A stretch of DNA of 64,000 nt from a virus: IMG/VR virus record IMGVR_UViG_3300045747_000694, positions 42,165 to 106,164 of that record. One strand, 5' to 3'. The notes under the pieces were generated by a model, which worked only from the letters and a program-made list of their open reading frames with translations, made no database searches and was not told the origin of the DNA. The position numbers were made by a program, and so were the translations under genes. Below, in pieces: positions 18,837-19,226 of this stretch (position 1 is its first letter; each line of letters starts with the position of its first letter).

Positions 18837-19226
18837 CTACGCCTTCCTTGCGTGCTCGTACATTCCCCAGATGGTCAGGGGATGCTTCAGCGGGACGAAG
18901 CCCTTCTCGAGCAGCTCCATGCTGTAGCGGGGTGGGACATCCTTGGCGCAGGAGATGGTGATGTGGGCAACGCCCCTGTCCATTCGCAAGAGCTGCTCCT
19001 TGAGGTGGACAGCCTGGCCCTTGTCGTCTTCGGCCACACCATCCACGGTCATGCACACCATCTTCCCCAGCCGCGTCTCGAACTCCTTCACGATCTGCTC
19101 GTGAGGCTTGAAGACCACGGTGAGGTGCTCAGCGAAGACCTTCGGGTGCTTGGGCGGGATCGCCGCCAAGAGGGCCTTCTTGCTGGTCTCGGTCAGGTAC
19201 AGCGCGATGAAGACAGGGAGGGCCAT
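18837..19226 (-). CDS. 2H phosphoesterase superfamily protein (LigT/Acb1-like)
   Basis: Two H-x-T-x motifs in the expected order (EHLTVVF and AHITISC), preceded by the beta-strand PVFIALYL. Confidence 0.55.
   Translation of the reverse strand: MALPVFIALYLTETSKKALLAAIPPKHPKVFAEHLTVVFKPHEQIVKEFETRLGKMVCMTVDGVAEDDKGQAVHLKEQLLRMDRGVAHITISCAKDVPPRYSMELLEKGFVPLKHPLTIWGMYEHARKA

Follow-up and report, generated by a model that had tools for sequence, protein, structure and literature searches.

The protein analysed here is encoded by a small gene in a 64,000-nucleotide stretch of phage DNA (IMG/VR record IMGVR_UViG_3300045747_000694, positions 42,165 to 106,164; this whole stretch is referred to as the window). 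According to its predicted structure, the protein is a 2H phosphoesterase of the CNPase/Trl1-CPD branch reduced to a core of 129 residues. Most likely this small phage protein mends cut RNA, and it probably destroys no bacterial immune signals. Its action as a metal-independent RNA 2',3'-cyclic phosphodiesterase in the healing of RNA or tRNA ends is given a probability of about 0.6. The evidence comes from the predicted fold and its nearest neighbours, from the large family to which the protein belongs, and from the fusion and neighbourhood partners of its relatives.

Predicted fold and nearest structures

The original prediction had described a 129-residue protein with two H-x-T-x motifs, HLTV and HITI, as a compact 2H phosphoesterase. 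Both the open reading frame (ORF) and the motifs can be read directly from the sequence, and the phosphoesterase call is borne out by the predicted fold and the family evidence. An AlphaFold model computed with 102 homologues as input reached a predicted local distance difference test score (pLDDT) of 94.7 and a predicted template modelling score of 0.86; an earlier model from three close homologues (pLDDT 39) was discarded. The model has a bilobed alpha+beta fold with both motifs on central strands, as in the 2H superfamily. Thus, when the fold was checked with the 102-homologue model and by structure comparison, the predicted fold was 2H.

In a Foldseek search against the PDB, matches 1 to 49 were CNPase entries, and match 50 was the kinase-CPD of fungal Trl1. 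It can be seen that CNPase and Trl1-CPD are the closest structural neighbours, ahead of other 2H branches. In a comparison with predicted viral structures, multidomain proteins of giant viruses were among the best matches; one of these (765 residues) is named 'RNA ligase', and Acb1 ranked lower. The similarity of Acb1 to the 2H model was half that of CNPase, and Acb1 was not the nearest structural neighbour. The penguinpox cyclic GMP-AMP (cGAMP) phosphodiesterase, mouse hepatitis virus (MHV) ns2, and rotavirus VP3 were also among the structure matches. In the comparison with Acb1 and LigT that had been suggested, both proteins were more distant than CNPase, and the likeness to Acb1 was at the level of the 2H superfamily.

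Local sequence similarities were found in the same branch. The motif 2 region aligns locally with CNPase HVTLGCAADVQPV, and the Trl1 segment 'HITIGC...ESN' aligns locally with the family segment 'HITISC...YSN'. Profile searches of PDB sequences gave sub-significant local matches of the family N-terminus with CNPase PLYFGWFLTKKSSETLRKA and of motif 2 with CNPase AHVTLGCAADVQPV and Candida Trl1 HITIGCIPPATAVESN. Taken together, the Foldseek ranking, the viral structures, and the local profile matches point to a 2H enzyme of the CNPase/Trl1-CPD branch that has been cut down to its core.

Compared with its nearest relatives of known structure, the phage protein is small. The CNPase domain (PDB 2xmi) has about 215 residues with extra loops and helices, follows a polynucleotide-kinase-like domain, and is membrane-anchored, whereas the phage protein is a bare core of 129 residues; it is stand-alone, with no P-loop kinase or kinase-like domain in front of the 2H domain. 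The CPD of fungal and plant tRNA ligase Trl1 (PF08302; PDB 6u05/6tzo) resembles the phage protein in being its sole Pfam match and in ranking directly after CNPase by Foldseek. In addition, Trl1's own modules recur among the relatives of the phage protein, as a fused T4 Rnl1-type ligase in one and a fused P-loop kinase in two. In contrast to the Trl1 CPD, the phage protein stands alone; it is roughly half as long as the Pfam model (250 positions) and matches only the model's second half. The bacterial and archaeal RNA 2',3'-cyclic phosphodiesterases LigT/ThpR (PDB 4qak, 1vgj, 5h7f) have about 170-185 residues and are structurally farther than CNPase.

Family and conservation

An exhaustive HMMER search over 1.84 billion representatives, with clustering at 50% identity, found 766 family clusters with E-values of at most 1e-3; at the stricter limit of 1e-10, there were 209. 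A word-indexed search had found only three proteins, on metagenomic contigs of 153 kb and 198 kb. The family is mostly metagenomic, and the majority of its members are stand-alone proteins of 120-150 residues. Their common signature is '..Y.a.fL...S...LL...PP.H..V.A.H.TL.F.P ... D.KGQAV ... PHITISCA.GV.PVYSNELL'. In an alignment of 189 members, every sequence has T36 and T90 (189/189 each), and H34 and H88 are each missing from a single one (188/189 each). Since they are near-invariant, the two H-x-T motifs are not a product of chance in 129 residues. Conservation extends to S92 (185/189), Y101 (183/189), and S102 (186/189); these three, together with D67, Q71, and H27, are each kept in 170-186 of the 189 members. 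The Asn of the 'YSN' motif (166/189), at residue 103 (bases 18918-18920), is changed to Met in the window protein and in the syntenic contig L001, and to Gly in the relative P0002. This is a clade-specific change adjoining the conserved Y101-S102.

The only Pfam match of the query is to tRNA_lig_CPD (PF08302), with an E-value of 0.034 over profile positions 177-219 of 250. In PHROGs, a family of unknown function was matched (E 0.0024). No match for the 2H protein was obtained in NCBIfam, in a single-sequence search of the PDB, or with the Pfam models LigT_PEase (PF02834) and 2_5_RNA_ligase2 (PF13563). A tblastn search of 50,697 isolate phage genomes gave nothing for the query or for the relative P0015, and only weak crAss-like matches for P0020. 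Also, no close relative of the query was present in GTDB representative genomes. The stand-alone family of about 130 residues is very large, nameless in curated libraries, structurally nearest to CNPase, and experimentally uncharacterised.

Fusion partners and genomic neighbours of relatives

Thirty-nine family members longer than 175 residues were scanned for additional domains. Seventeen matched tRNA_lig_CPD at E below 1e-4, and the HAD_SAK_1 phosphatase domain was fused in 10. A PolyA_pol/CCA-type nucleotidyltransferase, an AAA_33 P-loop kinase, and R3H were each fused in 2 of the 39. A T4 Rnl1-type RNA ligase, the cyclic-end recognition domain MJ1316, an AKAP7-type 2H domain, DUF7178, and a phosphoribosyltransferase occurred in one relative each. 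In a relative of 1538 residues, the minimal 2H domain (mini-2H) is combined with RWD, MJ1316, AKAP7-2H, AAA_33 kinase, HAD_SAK_1, and R3H in one chain. With the exception of DUF7178 and the phosphoribosyltransferase, all identifiable fusion partners act on RNA ends. In loci L014 and L025, where the 2H ORFs are longer, the additional segments had no relatives in the PDB. DUF7178 recurs with mini-2H: it is fused in P0044 (residues 497-667), and two unrelated loci encode it no farther than 1-2 kb away (Table 1).

The 'Swiss-army-knife' (SAK) RNA repair proteins with HAD_SAK_1 domains, reportedly described by Burroughs and Aravind in 2016, are similar in this respect, since 10 of the 39 multidomain relatives carry this mini-2H domain joined to HAD_SAK_1. 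The 2H protein of the window differs from them as a separate protein of 129 residues, and the only HAD in the window is HAD_PNKP-like and lies 10 kb away. The association of 2H with HAD_SAK_1 or a repair module, by fusion or adjacency, is thus seen in relatives but not in the window.

The neighbourhoods of relatives were also surveyed. Synteny with the window was seen in contigs L001 and L002, where the genes beside 2H likewise have no family match. In two related jumbo-phage loci (L003 and L011), genes for an RNA ligase (PF09414), Thg1, RlaP, and RNase T were found 3-8 kb downstream of 2H; L011 also has a Macro domain gene, which is the second gene upstream. A peptidyl-tRNA hydrolase gene lies near the 2H homologue in L008, together with NMNAT-like, NAPRTase, and nicotinamide adenine dinucleotide (NAD) synthase genes. 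A Ro60-like gene and an AAA_33 kinase were found near 2H in other loci.

A census of 15 further IMG/VR loci covered 148 ORFs within about 6 kb of 2H. PolyA_pol was the most recurrent neighbour domain (4 times), and a CCA-type nucleotidyltransferase lies no more than 3 kb from 2H in 4 of the 15 loci. It is the same-strand neighbour gene in L016, L022, and L025, and in L014 it is 3 kb away. The L014 enzyme has the full PolyA_pol, RNA-binding, HD, and tRNA_NucTran2_2 architecture of the bacterial CCA-enzyme type. NAD synthase and CTP_transf_like were also present in the census, and the gene for the Thoeris inhibitor Tad6 was found in one neighbourhood. The associations with CCA-type nucleotidyltransferases and HAD phosphatases point to end healing in which ligation is not necessarily involved.

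A different arrangement was observed in L020 (IMG/VR UViG_3300025131_000014, 33% guanine-cytosine (GC) content), where an ORF of at least 4726 residues (2-14179, plus strand) contains mini-2H at about residues 3333-3450. Residues 759-1292 of this giant crAss-like ORF match the DNA-dependent RNA polymerase of phage phi14:2 (PDB 6vr4, E 1.6e-21), a crAss-like phage enzyme that is packaged in the virion and injected at infection. Because the domain lies within a polymerase-bearing ORF, it may enter with the DNA in some phages. An alternative genetic code in L020 was considered and rejected; the apparent lack of ORFs is due to the single giant ORF of 4726 residues.

Proposed function and competing explanations

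In the proposed mechanism, H34/T36 and H88/T90 would face each other over a cleft between two small beta-sheet lobes. The two His-x-Thr motifs are expected to act as general acid and base, with no metal, and to convert the 2',3'-cyclic phosphate of a ribose into a phosphomonoester. If the enzyme works like CNPase and Trl1-CPD, as the literature describes them, the product would carry a 2'-phosphate and a 3'-hydroxyl. Likely targets would be the 2',3'-cyclic phosphate ends that arise during infection when tRNA or other RNA is cut by metal-independent host RNases, such as anticodon nucleases and toxin RNases. The monoester would next be removed by a phosphatase: the fused HAD in relatives, and here an unlinked HAD or a host enzyme. 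In the last step, a CCA-adding enzyme might restore the tRNA 3' end, or a ligase might reseal the break.

This proposal agrees with published views. CNPase is held to descend from tRNA-healing enzymes (PMC5434554), and removing 2',3'-cyclic ends so that repair can follow has been suggested as a task of 2H enzymes in jumbo phages (PMC7824862). The presence of 2H enzymes in large phages and their proposed clearing of cyclic ends are therefore already in the literature, and the domain is recognisable in SAK repair proteins.

Several points speak against the proposal. The query scores 14.1 bits against PF08302, under the curated cut-off of 23 bits; at least four of the relatives scanned (P0035, P0057, P0066, P0118) score 26-38 bits, over the cut-off, so the family sits at the edge of the Pfam model. 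In an all-against-all BLAST comparison of 9 loci, no neighbour was conserved across distant loci; the 2H gene thus travels alone, and there is no operon-level linkage here. No polynucleotide kinase, RNA ligase, CCA enzyme, Thg1, RlaP, or Tpt1 was found in the 64-kb window, which covers part of a contig of about 153 kb. A 2'-phosphate product would block RtcB-type ligation, and a further phosphatase or Tpt1 would be needed. Moreover, the substrate does not follow from the fold, since enzymes of the CNPase type also hydrolyse free 2',3'-cyclic nucleoside monophosphates (2',3'-cNMPs) in vitro. The main published counter-view is that of Iyer et al. (2017, PMC5512222), according to which solo phage 2H domains have no association with RNA ligases, and RNase or anti-signal roles are proposed for them.

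The substrate could instead be a small molecule. The protein would then be a phosphodiesterase of 2',3'-cNMPs or of ADP-ribose cyclic phosphate (Appr>p), taking part in nucleotide or NAD/ADP-ribose housekeeping during infection. CNPase, the nearest structure, is assayed on 2',3'-cNMPs (PMC11629607), and the Macro gene of L011, the three NAD-related genes of L008, and the NAD synthase and CTP_transf_like genes of the census agree with such a role. However, these associations are loose and concern a minority of loci, and the window has no detected Tpt1 or Macro gene. The fusions with R3H, MJ1316, CCA nucleotidyltransferase, RNA ligase, and polynucleotide-type kinase point to polymeric RNA ends, and the small-molecule function is considered unlikely.

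Of the two options that the original prediction had weighed, it preferred an anti-defence nuclease like the anti-CBASS enzyme Acb1 and kept RNA-end processing or repair as the alternative. An Acb1-like enzyme would use the 2H site to cleave cyclic oligonucleotides or 2'-5'-linked signals of the cyclic-oligonucleotide-based anti-phage signalling system (CBASS), of type III CRISPR, or of similar systems, thereby blocking effector activation. The 2H gene does lie among small unannotated phage genes, and viruses have turned 2H domains against nucleotide signals more than once, as in the penguinpox, MHV, and rotavirus proteins named above. The polymerase-bearing giant protein of L020 and the Tad6 neighbour are compatible with such a role, which Iyer et al. 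(2017, PMC5512222) also predicted for phage 2H domains that stand alone. Against this, hhalign of the 102-sequence profile with T4 gp57B gave a probability of 10% over 44 columns, in a register off the catalytic motifs. The protein is not in the Acb1 family: its likeness to Acb1 (T4 gp57B; PDB 7t27, 9q2y) is structural, at superfamily level only and well below that to CNPase, with no family-level sequence relationship. The fusion and neighbourhood contexts also differ, since the partners are RNA-end repair modules rather than anti-defence genes, and no CBASS-related context was seen. The preferred option of the prediction thus proved the less supported one, and an Acb1-like function is judged quite improbable. 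Its alternative fits better with the weak CPD matches, the repair-module fusions, and the CCA-type enzymes in 4 of 15 loci, although no kinase, RNA ligase, or CCA enzyme was found in the window.

In a variant of the anti-signalling idea, the mini-2H family would be a second, independent family of phage anti-signalling nucleases, distinct from Acb1 and delivered or expressed at the start of infection. It would destroy a nucleotide immune signal or an RNA-derived alarm molecule with a 2',3'-cyclic phosphate or a 2'-5' linkage. Early action would fit because the L020 domain is part of a giant crAss-like protein that also has an RNA-polymerase module; nevertheless, this variant is regarded as a doubtful conjecture. 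Finally, an Usb1/Mpn1-like RNase or 3'-end trimmer, whose 2H site would cut host or phage RNA and leave cyclic phosphate ends, is very improbable, since Usb1 is among the more distant structural neighbours, and the fusions with phosphatase, kinase, ligase, and CCA enzyme argue for healing over cutting.

Gene organization and other contents of the window

The ORF is a real gene, as indicated by its codon-position GC content, tight packing, and substitution pattern. The GC content at codon positions 1, 2, and 3 is 0.61, 0.35, and 0.89, which is the coding pattern of the window (64% GC). Compared with the 74%-identical homologue in the syntenic contig L001, the ratio of nonsynonymous to synonymous substitution rates is 0.36. 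The stop codon of the upstream gene (19227-19229) directly abuts the ATG of the 2H gene, and the ATG of the downstream gene (18834) lies 2 nucleotides past the 2H stop. A stretch of 860 bp without a convincing gene (19731-20588) lies ahead of this leftward string. Therefore, the 2H gene is the third in a tightly packed string that starts after the gap. No RNA elements were found near the 2H gene by Rfam.

Table 1. Coordinates of the 2H gene, its motifs, and other features in the window and in loci of relatives
Feature	Location	Strand	Remarks
Minimal 2H (CNPase/Trl1-CPD-like, by predicted structure) phosphoesterase gene	18837..19226	-	ATG start, TAG stop, 129 residues
Catalytic motif 1, H34-L-T36-V (HLTV, residues 34-37)	19116..19127	-	sequence reading
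Catalytic motif 2, H88-I-T90-I (HITI, residues 88-91)	18954..18965	-	sequence reading; then signature S92 ... P99-x-Y101-S102
Upstream gene, 57 residues, operon context	19227..19400	-	no significant family match
Downstream gene, 116 residues, operon context	18484..18834	-	kept in syntenic relatives L001/L002 only; no annotated function
HAD-type phosphatase, DxDGT ('FIDIDGTI')	29253..29747	-	HAD_PNKP E 2.9e-5, 24.6 bits, cut-off 27.6
'Ligase', 464 residues	57206-58600		weak match, ATP-dependent DNA ligase models only
Walker A ORF, 531 residues	50986-52581		probably the AAA ATPase of the window
tmRNA	11774-12142	-	full-length
Vault-like protein, 881 residues	30687-33332	-	MVP_shoulder and Vault_3 repeat domains
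GGDEF diguanylate cyclase	14081-14926	+	E 1.8e-35
Collagen-repeat tail fibre, 2026 residues	1625-7705	+	S74 intramolecular chaperone domain
Radical SAM protein	7702-8826	+	follows tail fibre
YpsA SLOG / DprA-like protein, 410 residues	55972-57204	-	E 2.3e-16
PolyA_pol/CCA-type nucleotidyltransferase	L016 5106-6365
PolyA_pol/CCA-type nucleotidyltransferase	L022 7509-9776
PolyA_pol/CCA-type nucleotidyltransferase	L025 8871-9650
PolyA_pol/CCA-type nucleotidyltransferase	L014 5437-7017
DUF7178 gene	L012 10439-11179	-
DUF7178 gene	L015 8609-9250	-
Vault-like homologue	L008 571-3153
Vault-like homologue	L013 5142-7787		directly upstream of 2H

Partners for the 2H enzyme were sought with Pfam and PHROG censuses of the window proteins and by phmmer with partner proteins from other loci. 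Nothing in the window was matched by phmmer with the CCA-type nucleotidyltransferase, RNA ligase, Thg1, RlaP, AAA_33, Macro, Pth, and DUF7178 proteins. Of the ORFs called in the window, only the one of 531 residues has a Walker A motif. The HAD phosphatase at 29253 and the ligase at 57206 had both been pointed out in the original prediction. The HAD phosphatase is real, but it is only HAD_PNKP-like and under the Pfam cut-off. With the HAD_SAK_1 domains fused to the 2H family it shares the generic DxDGT motif, and no significant similarity was detected. It could be an unlinked partner that removes the phosphomonoester left by the 2H enzyme. The second protein is ligase-like, but it looks like an ATP-dependent DNA ligase, and its identification as an RNA ligase was rejected.

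The census of the window also included a collagen/S74 tail fibre, radical SAM, GGDEF, a response regulator with a receiver domain, an AAA ATPase, class II ribonucleotide reductase, DNA polymerase A, GroES, hemerythrin, an endolysin, methyltransferases, and a gene resembling that of the major vault protein. The latter encodes a protein with MVP_shoulder (E 2.5e-27) and Vault_3 repeat domains, which is unusual in phages; homologues occur in two other mini-2H contigs. The transfer-messenger RNA (tmRNA) scored 105 bits against RF00023 (gathering threshold 47), and ARAGORN gave the tag peptide ANEPMFAQQLAAA. Both the diguanylate cyclase and the pairing of tail fibre with radical SAM are kept in the syntenic contigs L001 and L002. 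The protein with YpsA SLOG / DprA-like domains adjoins the divergent DNA-ligase-like gene.

Biological meaning

If the proposed RNA end-healing function is correct, many large phages (766 clusters) carry a metal-independent opener of RNA 2',3'-cyclic phosphate ends of only 130 residues, which would be a cheap counter to many tRNA-cutting host defences and toxins. The protein would also represent the smallest known CNPase-type catalytic core, of use in work on the minimal 2H active site and, being compact, as a reagent for end healing. For anti-defence screens, the result is a caution against taking every small phage 2H protein for an analogue of Acb1; ranking at the fold level can tell the branches apart.

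Additionally, the CNPase/Trl1-CPD branch, which is usually deemed eukaryotic, would have a large phage reservoir. As a weaker corollary, the CPD module in eukaryotic Trl1 and CNPase could have its source in prokaryotic viruses, namely in this abundant phage family. If this were true, it would complete the phage ancestry that has already been seen for the ligase and kinase modules of Trl1.
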